From positions 32,872-96,871 of the forward strand of contig JAFGHS010000050.1 of assembly GCA_016930075.1 (NCBI GenBank): 64,000 nt of DNA. Reading direction: 5' to 3'. Source of the DNA: Deltaproteobacteria bacterium (GTDB taxonomy: Bacteria > Desulfobacterota > Syntrophia > Syntrophales > JAFGHS01). The notes beneath the pieces were generated by a model. That model was not told where the DNA came from, ran no database searches, and saw only the letters and a list, made by a program, of their open reading frames with translations. This document shows, piece after piece, positions 17,185 to 42,065 of the stretch. The translations under genes and the position numbers were made by a program. Positions within the stretch are counted from its first letter, which is position 1. Each line of letters opens with the position of its first letter.

Positions 17185-18280
17185 CGCAGTGATGGGTGAA
17201 TGCAGAATGATCATAGCCGGGGGCGGCACAGGGGGTCATCTTTTCCCGGGCATTGCCGTCGCGGAAGAGTTATTAAAGCGAAATCCGAAAAACGCCGTGC
17301 TGTTTATCGGAACGGAAAGGGGACTGGAAAACAGGATTCTTCGTGAGCTTGGGTACGAGTTGCGATTGCTTGACGTGGAAGGCGTCAAAGGAAGGGGCAT
17401 CATGAAAGCCGCGCAGGCGGTTCTGAAAATACCGAAGAGCATGATGGCGTCCCTCAAAATTATCCGGGACTTCCGGCCCGATATCGTCATGGGCGTCGGC
17501 GGCTACGTGTCGGGGCCCAGTGTGATCACGGCGCACTTCATGGGAATCAAGACGGTCGTTGCCGAGCAGAATGTTATTCCGGGGGTGACCAATCGCATCC
17601 TCGGCAGGTTTGTCGATAAAATATTCATTACCTTTTCCGATACTGAAAAATGGATTTCCGGCAAAAAAGCTTTCATGTCCGGCAACCCGATCCGTGCCGG
17701 TTTTATGGCTGAAAATGGGGCGTCAAAAGAGGACAACGGCCGCTTTAACATCCTCGTATTCGGGGGCTCTCAAGGCGCACGGGCCATCAACAGGGCCTGC
17801 ATGGATGCCCTGGATCATTTGGGGACGATGAAAGATCAACTGAAATTTGTTCATCAGACGGGGAAAGACGATTGCGAAGAGGTTTCAAGAGGATACCGTA
17901 CCCGCGGTTTTGATGCAGTGGTCCTGCCTTTCATTATGGATATGCCTGCGGCATACCGATCGGCCGATTTGCTGATCTGCCGCGCCGGCGCCACATCCAT
18001 TGCCGAGTTGACCGCGTGCGGCAAGGCGTCTGTTTTGATTCCCTTTCCCTATGCGATTCATGACCATCAGACCAAAAACGCCGAGGTTCTGGTCAGGGCG
18101 GGAGCGGCGGAGATGATTCCCGAAACCGAATTAAGCGGCCCGGTGCTGGCGCATATGATCGAAGATTTTAAAGACAACCCCGATGTAATCTGGGCCATGG
18201 AGAAAAAATCCTTTGCCCTGGGCAATAAACGGGCGGCGGCGGATATTGTTGATGAGTGTTTGAGAATGATAAAAAAATAG
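17162..18280 (+). CDS. murG: Lipid II N-acetylglucosaminyltransferase MurG
   Basis: Carries GGGTGGHLFPG and C-terminal GT28 motifs. The start is uncertain: ATGs at 17162, 17174, 17192 and 17207 are all in frame, and family N-termini favour 17192-17207. Confidence 0.9.
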   Translation: MCRPMESDAVMGECRMIIAGGGTGGHLFPGIAVAEELLKRNPKNAVLFIGTERGLENRILRELGYELRLLDVEGVKGRGIMKAAQAVLKIPKSMMASLKIIRDFRPDIVMGVGGYVSGPSVITAHFMGIKTVVAEQNVIPGVTNRILGRFVDKIFITFSDTEKWISGKKAFMSGNPIRAGFMAENGASKEDNGRFNILVFGGSQGARAINRACMDALDHLGTMKDQLKFVHQTGKDDCEEVSRGYRTRGFDAVVLPFIMDMPAAYRSADLLICRAGATSIAELTACGKASVLIPFPYAIHDHQTKNAEVLVRAGAAEMIPETELSGPVLAHMIEDFKDNPDVIWAMEKKSFALGNKRAAADIVDECLRMIKK

Positions 18281-18296
18281 CATCGGCGGATTCAAA

Positions 18297-18380
18297 GCGT
18301 GTAGCGTAACTCGTGAAGCGTGAAGCATGACGACATGACGAGCAGGATACGAGACGCGAGCGACGAACGACGCATCAACG
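18297..18380. repeat. Dispersed repeat family E (GTGAAGCG iterations ... GAGCGACG-ACGAACGACG), copy 1
   Basis: GCGTAACTCGTGAAGCGTGAAGC ... GACGCGAGCGACGAACGACGCAT fills the murG-murC spacer. A related copy lies at 60691-60808 (GCGTATCTCGTGAAGCGGGAAGCGTGAAGCG ... GACGAGCGACGCACCACGAACGACGGAT). Confidence 0.6.
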
Positions 18381-18432
18381 GACCGGAGGGATATAACAAA
18401 CGGTGGAAGAAAGCAGAAGAAATACGGACGTC

Positions 18433-19803
18433 ATGCGCAGAAAAGTGCAGTGCATCCATTTTGTGGGCATCGGCGGCATCGGTATGAGCGGCATTGCGGA
18501 GGTCCTCCTTAATCTGGGATATGCCGTCAGCGGGTCCGATCTGGGACAGTCCGACATCACGCAGCGTTTGAGTGCCCTGGGCGCAAAAATCGCCGTCGGC
18601 CACGACGCAGGGAATCTCAGAGAGGTCGATGTGGTTGTCACTTCCACAGCGGTCAGGGCCGACAATCCGGAAGTCGTTGAAGCCCACCGCCGGATGATTC
18701 CCGTAATCCCCCGCGCCGAGATGCTGGCAGAGCTCCTCAAAATGAAATTTTCCATCGCCGTATCGGGCAGCCACGGCAAGACCACAACCACATCCATGGT
18801 GGCTACAGTTCTTGCGGACGGGGGGCTTGACCCGACCATGGTGATCGGCGGGAAACTGGGCAGCATCGGCAGCAATGCCAAGATGGGCGGCGGCTCCGTG
18901 ATTGTCGCGGAAGCCGACGAGAGCGACGGCTCCTTCCTGAAACTGAGTCCCTCCATTGCCGTCATTACCAACATAGACCGGGAACATCTCGACTACTATC
19001 GGGATATTGATGATATAAAAAGCGCCTTCCTCCAATTCGCCAACATCGTGCCTTTTTACGGCTCCACAATCATCTGCGCCGATGACGCCCATTGCCGGGA
19101 GATCATTCCTCTGGTGAAGCGCAAAGTGATTACCTACGGCCTTTCGCAGCCGGCGGATTACCAGGCCGCGGACATGACATTTGCCGGCTCGTCCTCCCGT
19201 TTTTCCGTCCGGCATGGAGGCGCCCTTCTGGGTGAAGTGGTCCTGAATGTTCCCGGTATATTTAATATTTCCAACGCCCTGGCTGCCGTTGCCGTCGCCC
19301 GTGAACTTGACATGGCGTTTGCCGTCATCTGCGACGGCCTTTCAAAGTTCGGCGGCGTCCAGCGGCGGTTGGAGGTGAAGGGCAAGACGGGCGGTGTGAC
19401 CGTTGTGGACGACTATGGCCATCATCCGACAGAAATCAAGGCGACGCTTGCCGCGGCCAGGCATGTATGGCATGACCGGGTCATCTGCGTCTTCCAGCCC
19501 CACCGCTATACAAGGACGAAGGCGCTGTATCAAGAATTTCTGTCGGCCTTTGCCGATGCGGATGTCCTGATCCTGACGGACATTTACCCTGCCAGCGAAG
19601 AACCCATTCCCGGCGTCGATTCCCTGAATTTATGCAGGGGAATCACCGAGGCGGGCCACAAAGACGCGACATATATGGCTGACGCTCGTGAGATCGTGGA
19701 AAAGCTGCGCGCCATAGCAAAACCTTCGGATTGCATCATTACCCTCGGTGCCGGAAACGTGTGGAAGATAGGGGAAGAGTATTTGAGAAAGGTTGGTGAG
19801 TAA
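18433..19803 (+). CDS. murC: UDP-N-acetylmuramate--L-alanine ligase MurC
   Basis: [18 protein letters not shown] and [11 protein letters not shown] motifs are present. The start is placed at ATG 18433 ([15 protein letters not shown]); the track ORF begins at GTG 18403. Confidence 0.9.
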
Positions 19804-19857
19804 AATGCGTGCATATTTGACCAAAGCTTTTAAACGGGGTTTAAAATTTGGAGACAA

Positions 19858-19910
19858 ATCGGGAAGCATGAGGACCGATTTTAAATCTGTCCCCATGCTT
19901 CCGAATCGGG
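19858..19910. repeat. Palindromic element family A, extended and degenerate copy in the murC-murB spacer
   Basis: ATCGGGAAGCATGAGGACCGATTTTAAATCTGTCCCCATGCTTCCGAATCGGG. The core GGACCGATTTTAAATCTGTCCCC is related to the GGGGACAGATTTSAAATCTGTCCCC consensus, and the flanks (GGGAAGCATG / CATGCTTCC) extend the hairpin. Confidence 0.6.
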
Positions 19911-20044
19911 CGTTGCCCTCGTACATTGAATCGATCGAACGCAGCGTCAGAATTGAGTGGTACCCCAATAAAACGTGGATTGGCCCCCTGCGCAGATCAT
20001 CATCTTTGCAGCGGTAGGGCATTCATGAACAGGAATATCGCAAC

Positions 20045-23127: not shown

Positions 23128-24261
23128 ATGATGTTTGAATTATCTGATTCAGGTTCGACAAGCGCGGCGAAAATCAAGGTGGTCGGTATCGGCGGCGGGG
23201 GAGGAAACGCCGTCAACACCATGATCTCTTACAGCCTCATGGGGGTCGATTTTATGTCGGCCAACACGGATGCCCAGGCTCTTGGCGCATCCAAATCACC
23301 GATCAAGATTCAGCTCGGCCACGGCCTTGGCGCCGGTTCGGACCCGGAGATCGGCAAGTGTGCGGCTGAGGAGGCGAGAGACAGAATCCGGGAAAACATC
23401 GGCGATGCGGATATGGTTTTTATCACCGCCGGTCTGGGCGGCGGCACAGGGACCGGCGGAGCGCCCATCGTGGCGGAAGTGGCCAAAGAACTGGGCGCTC
23501 TCACCGTGGCCATCGTCACGAAGCCTTTTCAGTTTGAAGGCAAGAAGAGGAGCCGGCAGGCGGAAGAGGGCGTTATCGAATTGCGGAAGATCGTCGATAC
23601 CCTCATCGTTATTCCCAATCAGAGGCTTCTCAGTCTGGGCGGCAGAAATCTGTCCCTCATCGACGCCTTCAAGAAGGCCGACGATATTCTGTACCACGCC
23701 GTCAAGGGAATATCTGATCTGATTACCGTGCCGGGCCTCATCAATCTCGACTTTGCCGACGTCAAGAACATCATGTCCGAGATGGGGCTTGCCCTGATGG
23801 GGACGGGTATTGCGTCCGGCGAGAACCGGGCCGTGGAAGCGGCGCAGAAGGCCATTTCGTCTCCCCTCCTGGAGGACAACACTATTCAGGGCGCCCACGG
23901 CATTCTCCTTAACATCACGGGCGGGCCGGACATGTCGCTCTTTGAGGTGAACGAGGCATCGACCCTCATTCAGGCGGAGGCCCATGAAGACGCCAACATC
24001 ATCTTCGGCACCGTCATCGACGAGAAGATGGGTGATGAAATCCGCATTACCGTTATCGCCACGGGGTTCGAAGAGGTGGGCAAAAAACGCCTTCCCGGCG
24101 TGACGCACATTAACGCTTACAGAAGAGACGACATGTCGATCCCCGCATTTATGAGGAACGACAAGAAGTCGGCTGATAATATCCATATCAAGCCGGGCGC
24201 CGTTGACGACGACGATCCCGATCTGGAGATTCCGACATTCCTTCGGAGGCAGGCGGATTAG
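23128..24261 (+). CDS. ftsZ: Cell division GTPase FtsZ
   Basis: Carries the tubulin signature GGGTGTG and the [11 protein letters not shown] and NLDFADV motifs. The conserved C-terminal peptide is [13 protein letters not shown]. Confidence 0.97.
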
Positions 24262-30072: not shown

Positions 30073-30663
30073 ATGGAGCCGTTGATTTTGCGCATCGACC
30101 ATGTTTCTCTTGCCGTCCGGGATTATGAAAAGGCGGAGAAGTTTTTCCGTACAATCCTGGGAGGGATACCGGGGACGGCAGCCGAAGATCCGGGGATGAA
30201 GTATATCTGGCAGATGTTTTCCCTGGGAGACTTGAGCCGATTTGAATTGATGAGACCGACAGGGAAGGGCAGCTTTCTCGACAACTTCCTGGCGGACAGG
30301 GAGGGCGGCGTTCACCACGTTACCGTGCAGACGCCGGACATTGAGAAAGCCAAAAACATCCTGACGCAAAACGGCATTCCCTACTTCGGCTATAACGAAT
30401 ACAAGGACGCCTACTGGAAAGAGCTTTTCATCCATCCCCGCCATGCCTTCGGCGTCCTGATCCAGATCGCCGAGTTCAACGCCCCCGACTGGCTCTCCGA
30501 CGAGGTCAACCTTCCGAAGGGGCGGCGCTGGACCATCGAGAAGGCTAGCGGCGGAATCCGTCTCGATCTTGCCCATCCCGGCGGCGGCAGGCTCAAAATG
30601 GAGCTGACCAAAGAAGAAGCCAAAAAACTCATCAAAGATTTGGAAGAAGGCATCAAGTCGTGA
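30073..30663 (+). CDS. VOC (glyoxalase/bleomycin-resistance/dioxygenase) superfamily protein
   Basis: 196 aa. IDHVSLAVRDYEKAEKFF is the typical VOC N-terminal beta-alpha-beta module, and GGVHHVTVQTPDIEKA is a second module. The 225-aa antisense ORF 30064-30741 has no recognisable motifs. Confidence 0.7.
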   Translation: MEPLILRIDHVSLAVRDYEKAEKFFRTILGGIPGTAAEDPGMKYIWQMFSLGDLSRFELMRPTGKGSFLDNFLADREGGVHHVTVQTPDIEKAKNILTQNGIPYFGYNEYKDAYWKELFIHPRHAFGVLIQIAEFNAPDWLSDEVNLPKGRRWTIEKASGGIRLDLAHPGGGRLKMELTKEEAKKLIKDLEEGIKS

Positions 30664-30664
30664 A

Positions 30665-30706
30665 AAATATTTGGGGGACAAATTTGAAATATGTCCCCCA
30701 AATATT
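30665..30706. repeat. Palindromic element family A, variant copy between convergent VOC and tex genes
   Basis: AAATATTTGGGGGACAAATTTGAAATATGTCCCCCAAATATT is a 42-nt palindrome with one arm mismatch. It lies 2 nt after the VOC stop and 32 nt after the tex stop, so a bidirectional terminator role is plausible. Confidence 0.65.
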
Positions 30707-30737
30707 GATTTAAAATTTATCCCCAATATTTTGCCTC

Positions 30738-33083
30738 TCAACGTTTCCGGAAGGCCTCGGCGAAGGGATTGTTGAATGGTTTGGGCGGTTCCTTCTTAGG
30801 GACAGATTTGAAATCTTTCCCTCCCTTCCTGTCGTCGCGTTGTGGCGGCTTACCCGTCGCAGATTGGGATTTGGGGACAGATTTCAAATCTGTCCCCAAA
30901 CGGTGCAAACCGTTGGCATCGGCCTGTTGATCCGTTGCGGCCTTTTCGCCCGGCGTCTTTTTCATGGAGAGGGAAATCCGCTTCCTTTCCACATCGACGG
31001 CGAGCACCGTCACTTCCACCTTCTGGCTTACTTTCACCACATCCCCCGGCGATTTGATGAACCGGTCGGCCATCTCGCTTACGTGGACCAGGCCGTCCTG
31101 ATGGACGCCGATATCGACAAAAGCGCCGAAGGCCGTAATGTTCGTCACAATGCCGTTGAGCGTCATGCCCACGATGAGGTCCTCGATCTTTTCGACTCCC
31201 TCGGCGAAAATGACATTTTCAAATTGCTCCCGCGGGTCCCGCCCCGGCTTAGCCAGCTCGGCCATAATGTCCCGGAGGGTCGGAAGGCCGATCTTTTCGG
31301 TCGCATAGTTTGTCAGGACGATCTTTTGCCGGCGTGCCTCATCCTGGATAAGATCCATCACGGAACAGCCCTGATCCTGCGCCATCTTTTCGACGACGGA
31401 ATAGCTCTCCGGGTGGACGGCGCTTGTATCGAGGATATTTTCGCTTCCCCGCACGCGAAGGAAGCCTGCGGCCTGCTCGAAGGCCTTTGCCCCGAGGCGG
31501 CGGACTTTCTTGAGTTCCTCCCGGTTTTTGAACGGCCCGTTTTCGTCACGGTGCTTGACGACGTTTTCCGCCAGGGCTGGTCCCATGCCCGATACGTAAG
31601 ACAGGAGCTGGGCGCTCGCCGTGTTGACCTCGACGCCGACGGCATTGACAGAGCTTACCACGATGTCTTCGAGGCAGCGCTGTAATTCGTCCTGATCCAC
31701 GTCATGCTGATACTGGCCGACGCCGATGGATTTTGGTTCGATCTTGACGAGTTCCGCCAGGGGGTCCATCAAGCGCCGGCCGATGGAGACGGCCCCGCGC
31801 ACGGTGATATCATGATCGGGGAATTCATCCCGCGCCGCCTTGGAGGCGGAATAAATGGACGCACCGCTTTCATTGACCATAATGACGGGGATGCTTTGCG
31901 GCAGATCGAGGGTGCGGAGAAAGGCCTCCGTCTCACGGCCGGCCGTGCCGTTCCCCACGGCGATGGCTTCGATGCCGAATTTTCCGCATAAGGTTCTGAC
32001 TGTCCGGGCTGCTTCTTCGCGGCCCCTTTCGGAAAGAAGAGGGAAGATAGTTTCATGGTGGAGAAGCTTTCCCTGACGATCCAGGCAAACGGTCTTGCAG
32101 CCCGTGCGGAAACCGGGATCGACGGCCAGAACAGCCTTCTGCCCTAAGGGCGGCGCGAGGAGGAGCTGGCGAAGATTATCGGCAAACACCCGGATGGCGG
32201 TCTCGTCGGCCCGCTTCTTGGTGGTGAGGCGGGTTTCCGTCTCCATGGAGAGGGCAAGCAGGCGTTTGTAGCTGTCATGAACGGCCAGCTTCACCTGCTC
32301 CGCCGCTTCATTTGTGCTTTTCACGAAAAGGTCTTCCAGAATCTTCAGGGCCTCTTCTTCCGGCGGCGTCATGCGCAGGGTCAGGAATTCCTCCCGCTCA
32401 CCCCGGCGCATCGCCAGGACGCGGTGGGACGGCGCGGCGGCAACGGCCTCTTCCCATTCGTAATAATCCTTGTACTTGATCCCCTCCGCTTCCTTATCCC
32501 GTGCAACCTTTGACCGGATGACGCCGTGGTCGAAAAACAGGGTCCGCATCTGCGCCCGTGCTTCCTGGTCTTCGTTCACCCATTCGGCGATAATATCCCG
32601 CGCCCCGGCCAGGGCTTCATCAATCGACGCGACACCCAGCTCTTCATTGATAAAACCTGCGGCCTCTGCCCCGCAATCCATGTCTGCCTGGGCGAAGATT
32701 TTAAGCGCCAGGGGCTCCAGGCCCTTTTCTTTGGCGATGGTTGCCCGCGTGCGGCGTTTCGGGCGGAAGGGCAGGTAGATGTCTTCAAGGACCGACATGG
32801 TTTCCGCAGCGGCGATCTTTGCCGCCAACTCTTCCGTCAGGAGGTTGCGTTCCGTCAGAGACTTGATGATGGCGTCACGCCGCGCTTCCAGTTCCTCCAG
32901 TTGCAGCAGGCGATCCCGGATGCTTGTAATAACGACTTCATCAAGGGAGCCCGTCGCTTCCTTCCGGTAGCGGGCGATAAAGGGCACTGTCGCCCCTTCG
33001 TCAATCATCTGGGCCGTATCGGCCACCTGTTTGCCCGTCAGGCTGAGTTCTCCGGCAATCTTTTCGTATCTCAGTTCGTTCAT
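30738..33083 (-). CDS. tex: Transcription accessory protein Tex (S1 RNA-binding domain protein)
   Basis: Carries the N-terminal TVPFIARYRKEATG motif, YqgF/HhH core, and C-terminal S1 domain (GMTLNGIVTNITAFGAFVDIG...RISLSMK). The tail FNNPFAEAFRKR resembles the E. coli YhgF C-terminus. The start is placed at ATG 33083 (AAGGAT RBS); the ORF extends to 33125. Confidence 0.9.
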   Translation of the reverse strand: MNELRYEKIAGELSLTGKQVADTAQMIDEGATVPFIARYRKEATGSLDEVVITSIRDRLLQLEELEARRDAIIKSLTERNLLTEELAAKIAAAETMSVLEDIYLPFRPKRRTRATIAKEKGLEPLALKIFAQADMDCGAEAAGFINEELGVASIDEALAGARDIIAEWVNEDQEARAQMRTLFFDHGVIRSKVARDKEAEGIKYKDYYEWEEAVAAAPSHRVLAMRRGEREEFLTLRMTPPEEEALKILEDLFVKSTNEAAEQVKLAVHDSYKRLLALSMETETRLTTKKRADETAIRVFADNLRQLLLAPPLGQKAVLAVDPGFRTGCKTVCLDRQGKLLHHETIFPLLSERGREEAARTVRTLCGKFGIEAIAVGNGTAGRETEAFLRTLDLPQSIPVIMVNESGASIYSASKAARDEFPDHDITVRGAVSIGRRLMDPLAELVKIEPKSIGVGQYQHDVDQDELQRCLEDIVVSSVNAVGVEVNTASAQLLSYVSGMGPALAENVVKHRDENGPFKNREELKKVRRLGAKAFEQAAGFLRVRGSENILDTSAVHPESYSVVEKMAQDQGCSVMDLIQDEARRQKIVLTNYATEKIGLPTLRDIMAELAKPGRDPREQFENVIFAEGVEKIEDLIVGMTLNGIVTNITAFGAFVDIGVHQDGLVHVSEMADRFIKSPGDVVKVSQKVEVTVLAVDVERKRISLSMKKTPGEKAATDQQADANGLHRLGTDLKSVPKSQSATGKPPQRDDRKGGKDFKSVPKKEPPKPFNNPFAEAFRKR
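30798..30822. repeat. Palindromic element family A, intragenic copy 1 (inside tex)
   Basis: AGGGACAGATTTGAAATCTTTCCCT has one arm mismatch and is translated on the minus strand as GKDFKSVP. Confidence 0.7.
30870..30900. repeat. Palindromic element family A, intragenic copy 2 (inside tex)
   Basis: TTTGGGGACAGATTTCAAATCTGTCCCCAAA has perfect arms and is translated on the minus strand as LGTDLKSVPK. Confidence 0.75.
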
Positions 33084-33452
33084 CGTGATCCTTTTTTGTT
33101 TTTGTGGAATCCGGGAGGCTATCACAAGCCACGAAGTAAATGCAATCGCCAGATTGACGGTGTTCAGAAAAATTATTTTGGAATATTTTACAAATAATCC
33201 TTGCTATTTATGAATTAACCCTGTACAAGGCGCCATGTGATCGCGATAGTTATTGACCTTCCCACCTTTCTTCTTCAGAAACTTCGGCAGGAAAATCCAG
33301 CTCATCGTAATAGAATCCAGCTATTGTGCAATGCTTGTAACCGGTCTTGCCGGTTGGGCATCAGTGTATGACGCGGTGCAACTTGAAAGCCGCAACGATT
33401 AGACATGGGTTCAAATGTCACGAATACTTAAATACAGAAGGAAAAAGAAGAA

Positions 33453-34757: not shown

Positions 34758-35435
34758 TTACTGCTGCAACTGCACGAAGGCCCGGAGCTTGCCCATATTT
34801 TCCCTGAAGGCGGAGGCGACCTTCTCTTTACGGTCCTCCGCCCAATCGGGTTCCCAGCCCAAACCGACGTCTTCACCGACCAGAATAACGGCGATTTGCG
34901 TGACCCGCGGTTTTGCCTCGATGATCGTCGTGACCGTGCAGACCCTCATGGGAGATTTGCAGTCATTGCACTTGCCGCCCTCGACGGCGCAAGGCGTTTT
35001 GAGCCCTGCGATCTTTGCCATGGCCGGCGCTGTTGTTGTTTTTATGCGATTTAGGGCGGCGGTTACATCTCTGACGATCTTATTTATCCCGGCGACGACG
35101 ATGACCTGTTTAGGCCCGAAGATCATGGCCGATACGCGATTTCCCGTCATATCCGTATTCACCAGCTTGCCGTCCATGGTAATGGCGTTGCTGCTGGTCA
35201 GATAAACGTCCGGCTGCTTCCGCGTCATGTTGCCCCGCTTCACCAGTTCATCCGTAATGCCGAGCTGCATCAGCGACACGGAACCGCCGATGCCCACCTT
35301 CGCCTCCGGCGGGATCATGGCCAGAACGATCTTTGCGACGTCTTCGGCTTTCTCTACATATTCCACGGGATCAAAACGGTTTGACTTCAGGGCCTTGATG
35401 GTTGCCTGTACATCCTGTTCCATTGTTTCAGTCAT
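34758..35435 (-). CDS. LUD-domain (DUF162, LutC/YkgG-like) lactate-utilisation-family protein
   Basis: 225 aa. VGIGGSVSLMQLG, SSNAITMDGKLVN, GNRVSAMIFGPKQVIVVAGINKIV, and C-terminal TPC...GKCNDCKSPMRVC match my recollection of the family pattern. Confidence 0.75.
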   Translation of the reverse strand: MTETMEQDVQATIKALKSNRFDPVEYVEKAEDVAKIVLAMIPPEAKVGIGGSVSLMQLGITDELVKRGNMTRKQPDVYLTSSNAITMDGKLVNTDMTGNRVSAMIFGPKQVIVVAGINKIVRDVTAALNRIKTTTAPAMAKIAGLKTPCAVEGGKCNDCKSPMRVCTVTTIIEAKPRVTQIAVILVGEDVGLGWEPDWAEDRKEKVASAFRENMGKLRAFVQLQQ

Positions 35436-35473: not shown

Positions 35474-35524
35474 TATGGGGACAGATTTGAAATCTGTCCC
35501 CATAGTAAATTTGTGTCCCCCAAA
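35474..35524. repeat. Palindromic element family A: perfect copy plus adjacent half copy
   Basis: TATGGGGACAGATTTGAAATCTGTCCCCATA (35474-35504) is followed by the half-site AAATTTGTGTCCCCCAAAAT (35507-35524). It lies 39 nt upstream of the LUD-gene start on the minus strand. Confidence 0.75.
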
Positions 35525-35868: not shown

Positions 35869-36642
35869 ATGCCGATAAAAATCAGCGCCGAGTTGTCCCA
35901 CATCTGTCCCCTTGACGACATCAGGCGGCACGCAGCCGCGCTTGAACGCCTCGGTTATTTTCGGGTCTGGATTCCTGATACGCTGGTTTCCCCCTGGGAG
36001 GCATGGACGGCGGCAGGCATTGCCGTGCAGCATACAAACAGAATCCAGATCGGCGTTGGCGTCATGAACCCTTATACCCGCCACCCTGTCGTGGCCGCCC
36101 AGATGGCCGCAACCCTGCAACATTTAAGCGGCGGGCGGATGGCTGTATCCGTCGGCAAAGGCATCGGGCGGTTTCTGGAAAAAGCCGGAATCGAGCAGAA
36201 AGACAGGGCCGTTGAAGAATATATCAGTGTGCTGCGAAGATTGATCGCCGGCGAACGGACAAGTTTCCAGGGCAATGCGTTTCATCTGGACGGCATGCGC
36301 ATCAGGGTGCCGGCGCCGGAGAAGCCCGTTCCCGTCTATATGGCGGCCATCGGCGTCGATAGCTGGCAGTCGGCCATAGAGGCGGCCGACGGCGTGGAGA
36401 CGATCTGGAATGATAATATTATGGAGATCCGCAGTCAGGTCAGGCATGTGCGCACCCTCCCCACGGCAGTCCTGATGCCGTTTTCCGTCTCCCGGAGCGA
36501 TTTTTTCAAGGACCGGATTGTTTCCGCTGCCGACTTGCAGGACCGGATCTCCATCCTGGAGGAGACCGGATTTGATGAAGCGATTGTGGCTTACGGTGAT
36601 ATGGCCGATTTGAGCGAAGCCGTTTTGTTGCGTACCGGTTAG
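35869..36642 (+). CDS. LLM-class (luciferase-like) flavin/F420-dependent oxidoreductase, short form
   Basis: 257 aa from ATG 35869 (GAGG RBS). LERLGYFRVWIPDT, IQIGVGVMNPYTRHP and RMAVSVGKG resemble the luciferase-like monooxygenase family. Confidence 0.65.
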   Translation: MPIKISAELSHICPLDDIRRHAAALERLGYFRVWIPDTLVSPWEAWTAAGIAVQHTNRIQIGVGVMNPYTRHPVVAAQMAATLQHLSGGRMAVSVGKGIGRFLEKAGIEQKDRAVEEYISVLRRLIAGERTSFQGNAFHLDGMRIRVPAPEKPVPVYMAAIGVDSWQSAIEAADGVETIWNDNIMEIRSQVRHVRTLPTAVLMPFSVSRSDFFKDRIVSAADLQDRISILEETGFDEAIVAYGDMADLSEAVLLRTG

Positions 36643-40141: not shown

Positions 40142-40188
40142 GACCGGTCATATGGGGACAGATTTCAAATCTGTCCCCATATGACCGG
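40142..40188. repeat. Palindromic element family A, longest perfect copy (47 nt); probable terminator of the AOR gene
   Basis: ACCGGTCATATGGGGACAGATTTCAAATCTGTCCCCATATGACCGGT has 23-nt perfect arms around a single central base. It lies 12 nt downstream of the AOR stop codon (40200, minus strand). Confidence 0.8.
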
Positions 40189-40199
40189 TGTGACGGTCT

Positions 40200-42065
40200 T
40201 TACGAAGCCGTCCTCTCGATGTATTTGTTTGCCCATTCAATATCGAGCTCCACCAGCCGCGCGTAAGTCGGCACGCCTTTTTCGTCCCAGCCCAGCATCT
40301 GATAGTAGATTTTCTGTGCTTCCGCAAGTTTTTCCGGGTCCACCGCCGTGCTCTTCATCGGTCCTTCAGCGGGGGACGAGAAAAACCTTTTCGGCAGGAC
40401 ATCGTCCTTTGCCGTAATGCCTTCCCGGAGATTGAAGATGCGCGTGAGCGTCATGCCCCGTTCTGCCGTCTTCATCAGCCGCCAGTAGCTCATGGGCCAG
40501 CCTGTGATGTATTCCGTCGCCTCCATGAGCTGCTGCTGCCGCCAGGGCAGGAAGATGCAGATGCCCAGGTAATTGGCCACCTGACGCCACATGCCGAAAA
40601 GATAAAGGATGCGCGTCTTGCGCGGGCTCAGCTCCGTGGATGGGACGGCCTCGGCAATATCCACGCCGTCCAGGGCTTTGAGATTGACGACGTCGTCATG
40701 GATGCCCGTGCAGTGGTCGGCGCCGGAGCCGTGGGCGCTGTAGTGGAGGCCAAGTCCCTGCTTGTATCGCGGTTCGTGCATGGGAATTTCATTGCCTTTG
40801 ACATGGATTGCGTAGTCTTCCGCACCCTTGCCGATGATCTGGGCGGCCTTCCGCGACCCTTCGGCAAGAATGTTCCCGAATCCCTTGCGGTAGGCGATCT
40901 TCTGAAGCATCTCGACCATAGCCACGCCGTTTCCGAAGGAAAGATCGATGCCGTCCGTATCCGTCCTGGTCAGGATGCCTTTTTCCGTCAATTCCATGGC
41001 AAAAGCGATGGTTCCTCCGGCAGAGATGGTGTCGATGCCGTAGCGGCCGCAGATTTCGTGGCCTTTGATGACGGCTTCCACGCTGTCGATCCCGCAATTG
41101 GAGCCCAGGGCGGCCAGGGTTTCATACTCCGGCCCGCCGTAGATGGGATCGACGGGCCAGGGTTCGCTTAGACGGTTGAGTTTTTTCTTGCAGCGCATGG
41201 CGCAGCCATAACAGCTTTCCATGGTGTCCCAGTAGCCCTTTTCTTTCATCCGTTGGGGCGTCAACTCTTTTACGGTAGGGAAATGGCCACCCTGAAAGTT
41301 GCGGATAGGAAGATTACCGATGGCTTCGTACTGCTCCATCGTGGAGCCCGTTCCGTAAACGGAAAAGGGCGTCGGTTTCTCTTTCACTTTCTTGTTCAGT
41401 TGCCGAGACATCTCGATAATTTTTTCCCGATCCGCCATGTCCGGGGCTTTTGAACCTTTGACGGCGATGAGTTTCAGTTTTTTTGATCCCATGACAGCGC
41501 CCAAACCGGTTCTGCCGGCAGCATGAGAAACGTCATTGATGATGGCGGCAAACCGGACGAGATTTTCCCCGCCCGGCCCGATGGCGGCCGTGCGATAGTT
41601 GTCACCCAGCTCTTCCCGGACGGCACGGTCGGCATCAGCGATTTCCATTCCCCAGAGTTTTCCGGCGTCCCGGATTTCCGCCGCGCCGTTTTCAATCTTG
41701 AGATAGACCGGTTTCCCCGCCGCGCCTTCAACAATAATACAGTCGAAGCCGGCCCTCTTCAATTCAGCCCCCCAGAATCCACCCGCCTCCGCTTCGCCGA
41801 AGCAGCCCGTCAAAGGCGATTTGGCGCCGATGCTGTTCCGGCCGCTTCCCGGCAGGGGCTGTCCCGTCACGGGTCCCAGGGCAAAGATCAGCTTGTTTTC
41901 CGGTCCCAGCGGGTCCGCCCCGGCAGGCACCTCCGTCAGGAGTTTTTCCACAATAAATCCCCGGCAACCGAGGTAGCGCCGATAGTAAGACTCCGGCGGC
42001 TCTTCAATGGAAATATTCCCATTGGTCAGGTTTACTCTTAAAAACTTGCCATTATAACCGTTCAT
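40200..42065 (-). CDS. aor: Tungsten-type aldehyde:ferredoxin oxidoreductase (AOR family)
   Basis: 621 aa with the AOR N-terminal domain (GKFLRVNLTNG...YLGCRGF...GPLTG). The central and C-terminal domains carry Cys motifs (CYGCAMRCKK) and GIDTISAGGTIAFAME. Confidence 0.9.
   Translation of the reverse strand: MNGYNGKFLRVNLTNGNISIEEPPESYYRRYLGCRGFIVEKLLTEVPAGADPLGPENKLIFALGPVTGQPLPGSGRNSIGAKSPLTGCFGEAEAGGFWGAELKRAGFDCIIVEGAAGKPVYLKIENGAAEIRDAGKLWGMEIADADRAVREELGDNYRTAAIGPGGENLVRFAAIINDVSHAAGRTGLGAVMGSKKLKLIAVKGSKAPDMADREKIIEMSRQLNKKVKEKPTPFSVYGTGSTMEQYEAIGNLPIRNFQGGHFPTVKELTPQRMKEKGYWDTMESCYGCAMRCKKKLNRLSEPWPVDPIYGGPEYETLAALGSNCGIDSVEAVIKGHEICGRYGIDTISAGGTIAFAMELTEKGILTRTDTDGIDLSFGNGVAMVEMLQKIAYRKGFGNILAEGSRKAAQIIGKGAEDYAIHVKGNEIPMHEPRYKQGLGLHYSAHGSGADHCTGIHDDVVNLKALDGVDIAEAVPSTELSPRKTRILYLFGMWRQVANYLGICIFLPWRQQQLMEATEYITGWPMSYWRLMKTAERGMTLTRIFNLREGITAKDDVLPKRFFSSPAEGPMKSTAVDPEKLAEAQKIYYQMLGWDEKGVPTYARLVELDIEWANKYIERTAS

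Follow-up and report, generated by a model that had tools for sequence, protein, structure and literature searches.

A 25-nt palindrome with arms matching transposon ends lies in frame within tex of a Syntrophales bacterium and is dispersed across several phyla

The stretch analysed here, called the window, is 64,000 nucleotides (nt) of contig JAFGHS010000050.1 from a Deltaproteobacteria bacterium of the order Syntrophales. It carries tex, the gene of an RNA-binding transcriptional accessory protein, and six copies of a 25-nt perfect palindrome, GGGGACAGATTT-S-AAATCTGTCCCC, which is called PAL below. Two of the copies reside inside tex. The open reading frame (ORF) of tex is intact and encodes the full domain set (Pfam Tex_N, YqgF, HHH, and S1). 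The ORF obtained mechanically (30738-33125, minus strand, stop codon included) opens with a GTG, 14 codons upstream of where the NCBI protein P0001 starts. Since this identical protein has 781 amino acids (aa), the start of tex is probably at 33083. The features concerned are as follows.

30738-33083, minus strand: tex (RNA-binding transcriptional accessory protein), 781 aa, 100% identical to P0001
30870-30900 (core 30873-30897, flanks TTT/AAA): perfect PAL copy inside tex, 0 mismatches
30798-30822: older, decayed PAL copy inside tex, 3 mismatches to the consensus and 1 between its own arms
30666-30706 (20-nt arms, core 30674-30698): PAL copy past the tex stop, 2 mismatches
30713-30724, plus strand: degenerate solo right arm AAATTTATCCCC in direct reading, 6 nt beyond the 30666-30706 copy
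35474-35504 (core 35477-35501, flanks TAT/ATA): perfect PAL copy, intergenic, 0 mismatches
40143-40189 (23-nt perfect arms, core 40154-40178): perfect PAL copy, 0 mismatches
19862-19902 (core 19870-19894, palindromic flanks GGAAGCAT/ATGCTTCC): decayed PAL copy, 3 mismatches

The window was scanned with the query GGGGACAGATTTSAAATCTGTCCCC allowing up to 3 mismatches, and 100 shuffles served as the background. Six copies were detected in the window and none in the shuffles. A looser scan with up to 6 mismatches gave the same six copies and none in 20 shuffles. An earlier note on this DNA had described the 25-mer in tex and in non-coding DNA. Both tex copies proved to be real, and perfect non-coding cores were located at 35477-35501 and 40154-40178. 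The copy at 19870-19894 was absent from its listing, and the copy which it placed 32 nt past the tex stop is actually 31 nt away. This last copy lies between the convergent stops of ORF 30073-30663 (plus strand) and tex, and the solo arm next to it is followed by the flank AATATTTT, resembling the flank of the copy itself. The palindrome at 35474-35504 precedes the start of ORF 34758-35435 (minus strand) by 42 nt and is followed by a degenerate right arm at 35507-35521. The one at 40143-40189 is found 11 nt beyond the stop of ORF 40200-42065 (minus strand). The 19862-19902 copy is within a 218-nt spacer separating murC-like and murB-like ORFs. This spacer (window 19801-20017) is missing from two related Syntrophales genomes, in which the genes abut or overlap (L013, 2900-2930, and L058), and the whole of it looks like acquired DNA. 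The same two genomes share a PAL copy upstream of murC, where the window site is empty (about 18277-18397). Isolated 11-mers resembling a PAL arm are also present within ORFs on the minus strand, at 23646-23656 (0 mismatch) and 35900-35910 (1 mismatch). They are probably not elements, as about one chance match is expected per 64 kb.

The palindrome is free of stop codons in five of six reading frames. The earlier note had regarded it as stop-free in either orientation, which holds for these five frames but not for the sixth, where a central G produces TGA. In tex, the perfect copy is translated from the minus strand as L-GTDLKSVP-K (residues 730-737 of P0001 for the GTDLKSVP block), and the older copy as GKDFKSVP (residues 755-762). 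Both blocks are positioned between the end of the S1 domain (...ERKRISLSMKK) and the C-terminal tail PFNNPFAEAFRKR, just as the translations LGTDLKSVPK and GKDFKSVPK had been given. RNA folding of the perfect copy at 30870-30900 predicted a hairpin of -22.6 kcal/mol (z = -6.2), and the 30798-30822 hairpin is no longer distinguishable from shuffled sequence. The hairpin of the 30666-30706 copy reaches -22.9 kcal/mol and is followed by AUAUUUUUC on the tex strand, and that of the 40143-40189 copy reaches -41.7 kcal/mol (z = -9). The 30666-30706 copy looks like a putative bidirectional terminator. It was not called in a terminator consensus scan, though the hairpin with AUAUUUUUC fits a terminator loosely. 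Neither of the intragenic tex copies is followed by a U-tract. No Rfam family matched at its gathering score anywhere in the window. Adjoining the perfect tex copy, within the coding sequence, is another small hairpin, AACGGT-GCAA-ACCGTT (window 30900-30916), with a 6-bp stem and a GNRA-type loop; it may have arisen by chance.

For the understanding of how the two copies came into tex, the C-termini of the 120 closest Tex proteins (74-100% identity) were compared. The S1 end R[IV]SLS[ML]KK and the PFNNPF tail are present in all 120, and the linker between them varies in length and sequence. GTDLKSVP, encoded by the perfect copy, appears in P0001 only. The second block is common to P0001, P0002 (GTDFKSVP), and P0004 (decayed GTDSRSAP) only. 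P0002 and P0004 are the closest relatives of the window Tex and share the FAEAFRKR tail. Both blocks are missing from the other 117 proteins. The DNA of the second block reads AGGGACAGATTTCAAATCTGTCCCC in L118 and GGGGACAGATTCCAGATCTGCCCCG in L119, and it is absent from L121 and about 115 other orthologues. Different original bases are retained in these two lineages; therefore, their ancestor had the full PAL. The comparison indicates that PAL entered tex twice, once in the ancestor of the three lineages and once recently in this genome. The older copy is decaying independently among the lineages, and the recent one is still perfect. The gene remains open because five of the six PAL frames are free of stops and because both copies fell into the length-variable linker between S1 and the tail. 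The view of the earlier note that an element had entered the gene is thus borne out by the orthologues, and also by the occurrence of the 25-mer in non-coding DNA and in unrelated genes.

The distribution of PAL was determined by scanning for the exact 25-mer in one genome per species. The exact copies found occupy at least 117 stretches, which belong to about 68 or more species-level assemblies of several phyla, and the flanking DNA differs from copy to copy with no relation. Most of the carriers are metagenome-assembled genomes. The carriers as a whole include Syntrophales, Desulfobacterales, Desulfurivibrio, Geobacter argillaceus, several independent metagenome-assembled Nitrospirota, and many Gammaproteobacteria, as well as single metagenome-assembled genomes labelled in the database as Chloroflexota, Bacteroidota, and Coprothermobacterota. 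Isolates with PAL are Marinobacter sp. ELB17, M. gelidimuriae, Halorhodospira abdelmalekii, Geobacter argillaceus, and Desulfurivibrio dismutans. Marinobacter sp. ELB17 and Syntrophales E10_metabat.bin.36 are examples of genomes rich in PAL. In the plasmid and phage collections, a near-PAL copy was detected on one Marinobacter plasmid only, with nothing informative adjoining. PAL is also present in 15 viral-contig stretches, and one 54-kb contig carries at least 10 copies. In three viral contigs, pairs of PAL bracket structural genes, namely those of a tail tube, head decoration protein D, and a capsid-like phrog_30644 protein. The phage-like contigs concerned are L125, L126, and L132 (IMGVR_UViG_3300033489_000011, 54 kb), and also L123 and L134. 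This arrangement suggests a role as an inter-cistronic hairpin, and suggests phages as a vehicle between hosts.

Residence within genes is not peculiar to tex. Long ORFs spanning PAL were scanned with Pfam, and a copy was counted as intragenic when domains lay on both of its sides or when it was within a domain. This strict test places at least 19 of the roughly 160 exact copies within genes. In-frame copies occur in RecG, HsdR, GlnE, a NuoG-like protein, cytochrome b, an HgdD/BzdN-like dehydratase subunit, an amine oxidase, and glycogen synthase. Two copies each are carried by Mfd, SelB, a PMT_2 glycosyltransferase, and a spermidine-synthase-like protein. The copies are read in each of the three frames, as GTD[L/F]KSVP (about 12 times), GDRF[E/Q]ICP (4 times), and GQISNLSP (3 times). 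In alignments to solved structures, the copies are discrete insertions of 7 aa against two HgdD/BzdN homologues and of 5 aa against E. coli GlgA. In a group of Deltaproteobacteria of 42% GC, PAL forms the centre of a longer composite palindrome, CCCTCCCCCTGTCCCCCTTTTCT-PAL-ACAGGGGGACAGGGGGAGG (L038, 6017-6090; L070, 2411-2482; L071, 3734-3804), which is itself repeated and is found in frame within SelB and GlnE. Orthologous spermidine-synthase-like genes show the order flank-PAL-flank in one genome and PAL-right flank-left flank-PAL in the other (L066, 5973-6069; L106, 880-990). This looks like a circular permutation and points to recombination, or slippage, between copies of PAL in a coding sequence. 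Overall, PAL is dispersed, recently active, present across phyla, and tolerated in frame.

The anatomy of the element was then considered. The centre of PAL is variable and consists of 0, 1 (any base), 2 or 3 nt. A weak flank consensus, AAT|PAL|ATT, was obtained. Solo arms were found within 20 nt of PAL on 24 of 320 flanks, about tenfold above the expected number of about 2, and tandem copies 14-20 nt apart also occur. No target-site duplication was detected, as direct repeats of at least 3 nt were at chance level (3 of 137 copies). Its absence fits the insertion mode of Y1 enzymes of the IS200/IS605 type. Elements of the IS200 type favour the lagging-strand template. The net gain of filled sites over empty ones was taken from pairs that are all 70-90% identical, with junctions that cannot be aligned base by base; it is 18 nt for each tex copy against the empty orthologue, 21 nt for a phage gene (L127 filled, L124 and L136 empty), and 17 nt for a gene end (L110 filled, L074 empty).

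The arms of PAL led to the transposons of the TIRYT family. A TIRtron consists of a gene for a RAYT-like Y1/HUH transposase (TIRYT; RAYT, REP-associated tyrosine transposase) flanked by inverted repeats (Di Nocera et al. 2013, PMC3733652). The consensus of these repeats is GGGG[AT][CG]A[CG] (GGGGWSAS) (PMC3733652; PMC6006769), and some of them are self-complementary and present as repeat families (PMC3733652). TIRYT corresponds to subclass 2.1 of TnpA_REP, which 14.9% of strains possess (Quentin et al. 2018, PMC6006769), with no REP-like partner sequences near the TIRYT genes (PMC6006769). The PAL arm GGGGACAGATTT begins with GGGGACAG, which fits this consensus. Starting from published sequences, eight of which were aligned, 80 metagenomic TIRYT loci were fetched and 67 of them examined. 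Repeats of the form GGGGACAC or GGGGACAG occur at about half of the 67, either on one side of the gene or on both. Those ahead of the gene are roughly 55 nt from the ATG, and those behind it 30-60 nt from the stop.

A closer match was obtained with the TIRYT of Thioalkalivibrio, which was used as a query since its family carries PAL (L011, L098); the loci of the matches were read. A longer repeat, GGGGACAGATTTATTTTC, brackets a Y1_Tnp gene in inverted orientation in Thioalkalivibrio sp. ALJT (L243, 7218-7985), Thioalkalivibrio sp. ALE31 (L244, 9945-10711), and Aquisalimonas (L246, 7627-8381). In another Thioalkalivibrio (L239) and in Ectothiorhodospira (L242), it was found upstream of the Y1 gene only, with no matching downstream copy. 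At each of the five loci examined, GGGGACAGATTTATTTTC has the 12-nt PAL arm as its outer 12 nt, in the same polarity. The 768-nt TIRtron sits at different places in the polysaccharide-biosynthesis clusters of the two isolates ALJT and ALE31, and therefore the autonomous element itself would be mobile. Its right repeat is 10-18 nt past the stop codon of the transposase.

Forms between the TIRtron and PAL were also found. On the Aquisalimonas contig, 2 kb from the TIRtron, two whole repeats are abutted in a 38-nt sequence, GGGGACAGATTAATTTTC-GT-GAAAATAAATCTGTCCCC. The long repeat form is present in PAL-bearing loci as well, namely L078 (six times), L028, and L115. [quoted passage not shown] PAL variants with 13-nt arms exist. 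The main argument for PAL being a minimal internal-deletion derivative of a TIRtron is this gradation, in which the MITE and then the 38-nt repeat pair stand between the TIRtron and PAL. Besides, at one of the metagenomic loci (L170), doublets of a 22-24-nt palindrome, GGGGACAGTCASSTGACTGTCCCC (1395-1441 and 2078-2124), lie to either side of a Sphingomonadales RAYT gene that adjoins an rsmA/ksgA-like gene. The outer 8 nt of this palindrome are as in PAL and its centre is different; it forms a separate PAL-like family.

Considering these matches, PAL is probably a very small non-autonomous mobile element made of two repeat ends of a TIRtron, the outer 12 bp of each, with 0-3 central bases joining them head to head. 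It would be copied in trans by a TIRYT enzyme whose gene is elsewhere in the genome. The enzyme would recognise the stem that both arms form in single-stranded DNA, like the IS200/IS605 and RAYT enzymes, and the left and right repeats of a full TIRtron could pair in the same way. Insertions that break a frame or a fold, or do other harm, would be purged by selection, and copies in linkers, loops, and intergenic DNA would persist. Their survival may be aided by the five open frames and by the hydrophilic peptide GTD[L/F]KSVP of the commonest frame. Intergenic copies after genes, such as those at 30666-30706, at 40143-40189, and around phage structural genes, may terminate transcription or stabilise mRNA. 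A bolder claim, to be taken as tentative, is that, of the transposable units tied to a transposase so far, PAL may be the smallest, one that is copied in trans by a Y1/HUH enzyme, has moved between phyla, and routinely adds 5-9 residues to essential proteins (Tex, RecG, Mfd, SelB, GlnE).

Several results weigh against an origin from TIRtrons. Neither the 64-kb window nor the PAL loci (about 1 Mb), all of them genome fragments, yielded a Y1, TIRYT or RAYT homologue; the search was done by phmmer with 12 published RAYT/TIRYT sequences and with IS200 and IS608 queries. RAYT-type genes are usually single-copy. The 80 metagenomic and 20 viral loci of TIRYT showed no exact PAL beside the transposase gene. 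Ectothiorhodospiraceae contain PAL as well as the TIRtron, but in different genomes (L011 and L098 against L239-L244). When the ORFs of 117 PAL loci were clustered, no protein family was consistently linked to PAL, and the families recurring nearby (peroxiredoxins, ABC ATPases, and similar) were at chance. Where a pair of PAL encloses an ORF, it is an ordinary gene or a phage structural one, and not a transposase. Plasmid-borne TIRYT homologues belong to unrelated genera, and a search for homologues of the L170 RAYT led to Sphingomonadales rather than to PAL carriers. A literature search for the exact 12-mers returned unrelated eukaryotic primers only and no bacterial paper. The overall gain at filled sites, +15 to +21 nt rather than 25, is also at odds with this origin, as such a gain without duplication is predicted neither by simple cut-and-paste nor by IS608-type insertion, although the sequences compared are diverged in every case. 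In addition, stem-extending palindromic flanks of at least 3 nt surround 26 of 137 copies, against about 2 expected. The extension is 6-11 nt in fourteen of the 26. Such symmetric extensions may be longer arms specific to subfamilies, as in L089, where the arms GAAACAAA/TTTGTTTC are common to two copies within one gene, and as in L078. Alternatively, PAL may have inserted into palindromes already present. Finally, we know of no experiment on TIRYT activity and of no published assay.

Other explanations were weighed against these data. The lack of a TIRYT gene near any PAL would suit a MITE of a DDE-type insertion sequence or a hairpin oligonucleotide captured during repair, with the TIRYT match due to shared ancestry or chance. 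A gain of less than 25 nt with replaced junction bases is what repair-mediated capture gives, and the palindromic flanks are symmetric and of variable length. However, target-site duplications, which are expected of DDE elements, are absent. The arm matches at 12 of 12 positions, including 4 nt beyond the family motif, in all five loci examined from the family, which was chosen for carrying PAL, and the graded arms of 12, 13, and 18 nt together with the same-ended MITEs connect PAL to the TIRtron. Such an origin is considered rather improbable. It is also unlikely that PAL is primarily a selected site, such as an operator, a terminator or an mRNA-stabilising hairpin, which is kept where useful and has no dedicated transposase. 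Its hairpins are very stable, copies lie after stops or between convergent genes (30666-30706 and 40143-40189), and on phage-like contigs PAL surrounds tail tube, head decoration, and capsid-like genes. Nevertheless, 25 nt identical across phyla cannot recur by point mutation, the arms are identical to transposon ends, and copies reside within genes, where a terminator would be harmful and where the tex copies have no U-tract. A function gained after insertion is compatible with a TIRtron origin and does not replace it.

The two remaining readings have hardly any probability. One takes the GTDLKSVP blocks for a peptide motif of Tex, either ancestral or functional, and the palindromy of the DNA for incidental, which would agree with both blocks being in the same frame of an intact gene. 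It was refuted by the orthologue alignment, in which 117 of 120 proteins lack both blocks and the perfect copy is confined to this genome; moreover, the same DNA is non-coding elsewhere and is read in all three frames of unrelated proteins. An assembly or sequencing artefact, such as an adapter or hairpin chimera, might be suspected from the predominance of metagenome-assembled genomes among the carriers. However, PAL is present in isolates sequenced by different technologies and in a Marinobacter plasmid, decayed copies are shared among related lineages, and the frames are preserved, so that an artefact is next to impossible. Four further candidates were rejected. A CRISPR repeat does not fit, as the copies are dispersed over 20 kb with irregular spacing, some of them within genes, and form no array. 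For a DNA uptake sequence, the unit is a palindrome rather than a solo arm and the copies are insertions. The junction of an insertion sequence circle has the wrong polarity: the inner ends abut, not the outer ones. The operator of a conserved regulator is not consistent with copies within ORFs.

Among the known systems, the TIR repeats are the closest to PAL. They share with it the motif GGGG[AT][CG]A[CG] (PMC3733652; PMC6006769), and in Ectothiorhodospiraceae the PAL arm equals their outer 12 nt. For Stenotrophomonas maltophilia, self-complementary families of TIR repeats, in pairs and clusters, are already described. In contrast, PAL has only 12 nt per arm (25 nt in total), is perfectly symmetric, and is identical across phyla. 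It is also often intragenic in frame, whereas PMC3733652 and PMC6006769 give intragenic copies for the GTAG/CGTC REPs and not for TIR. The REP and REPIN sequences with their RAYT (REPtrons) are likewise short palindromes dispersed in many copies, in paired clusters, and mostly after genes, and REPs are associated with a single-copy Y1/HUH enzyme. Some REPs are within genes, notably DNA repair genes (PMC3733652), and PAL is similarly intragenic. However, classical REPs are imperfect hairpins with an unpaired GTAG/CGTC tag and are lineage-specific, whereas PAL is perfect, untagged, and present in several phyla; no GTAG or CGTC was found at PAL, the flank consensus being the one given above.

Rickettsia palindromic elements (RPEs) are about 100-150 bp and are known only from Rickettsia. 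They are palindromic repeats residing in frame in many unrelated proteins and tolerated in surface loops or linkers, like PAL. The earlier note had compared PAL with them. The in-frame colonisation of ORFs agrees with this, but PAL is not an RPE; its arms equal the inverted-repeat termini of TIRYT elements. It is 25 bp with another sequence, and free-living Desulfobacterota, Nitrospirota, and Gammaproteobacteria harbour it. RPE repeats end in CGTC (PMC3733652). Bacterial MITEs such as Correia/NEMIS and RUP are non-autonomous and defined by the inverted repeats of a parent transposon, and the MITEs of L078 have the same ends as PAL. MITEs measure 70-300 bp, originate from DDE insertion sequences, and make target-site duplications, whereas PAL has essentially no internal sequence and shows no duplication. 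Small dispersed repeats of Nostocales (PMC5861425) were reportedly described by Elhai et al. in 2008. These repeats and the GC clusters of yeast mitochondria are mobile, 20-40 nt long, and in part palindromic, and they are nested within one another and found inside conserved sequences. They differ from PAL in sequence and host and have no known transposase, whereas PAL is tied to a transposon end. Judged by its sequence features, PAL fits the TIRYT-associated repeats and is neither an RPE nor an intragenic REP. Its 25-nt size, perfect symmetry, cross-phylum identity, and frequent in-frame residence in housekeeping genes are new with respect to the TIR repeats described.

The finding shows that in-frame colonisation of the RPE type extends beyond Rickettsia to free-living bacteria, with one identical sequence. 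PAL places predicted strong hairpins inside mRNAs and adds short peptides to conserved proteins, which is relevant to annotation and alignment. It can also be used as a lineage marker, as shared decayed copies are distinguishable from private perfect ones. TIRYT enzymes are common and yet have no known dispersed substrate; PAL is a candidate, a 25-nt hairpin with hundreds of natural insertion sites. The interest of PAL would be greater if TIRYT-dependent mobility of the 25-bp unit were demonstrated. If TIRYT enzymes do copy PAL in trans, PAL would be their defined minimal substrate, and these enzymes would be active shapers of genome and proteome.

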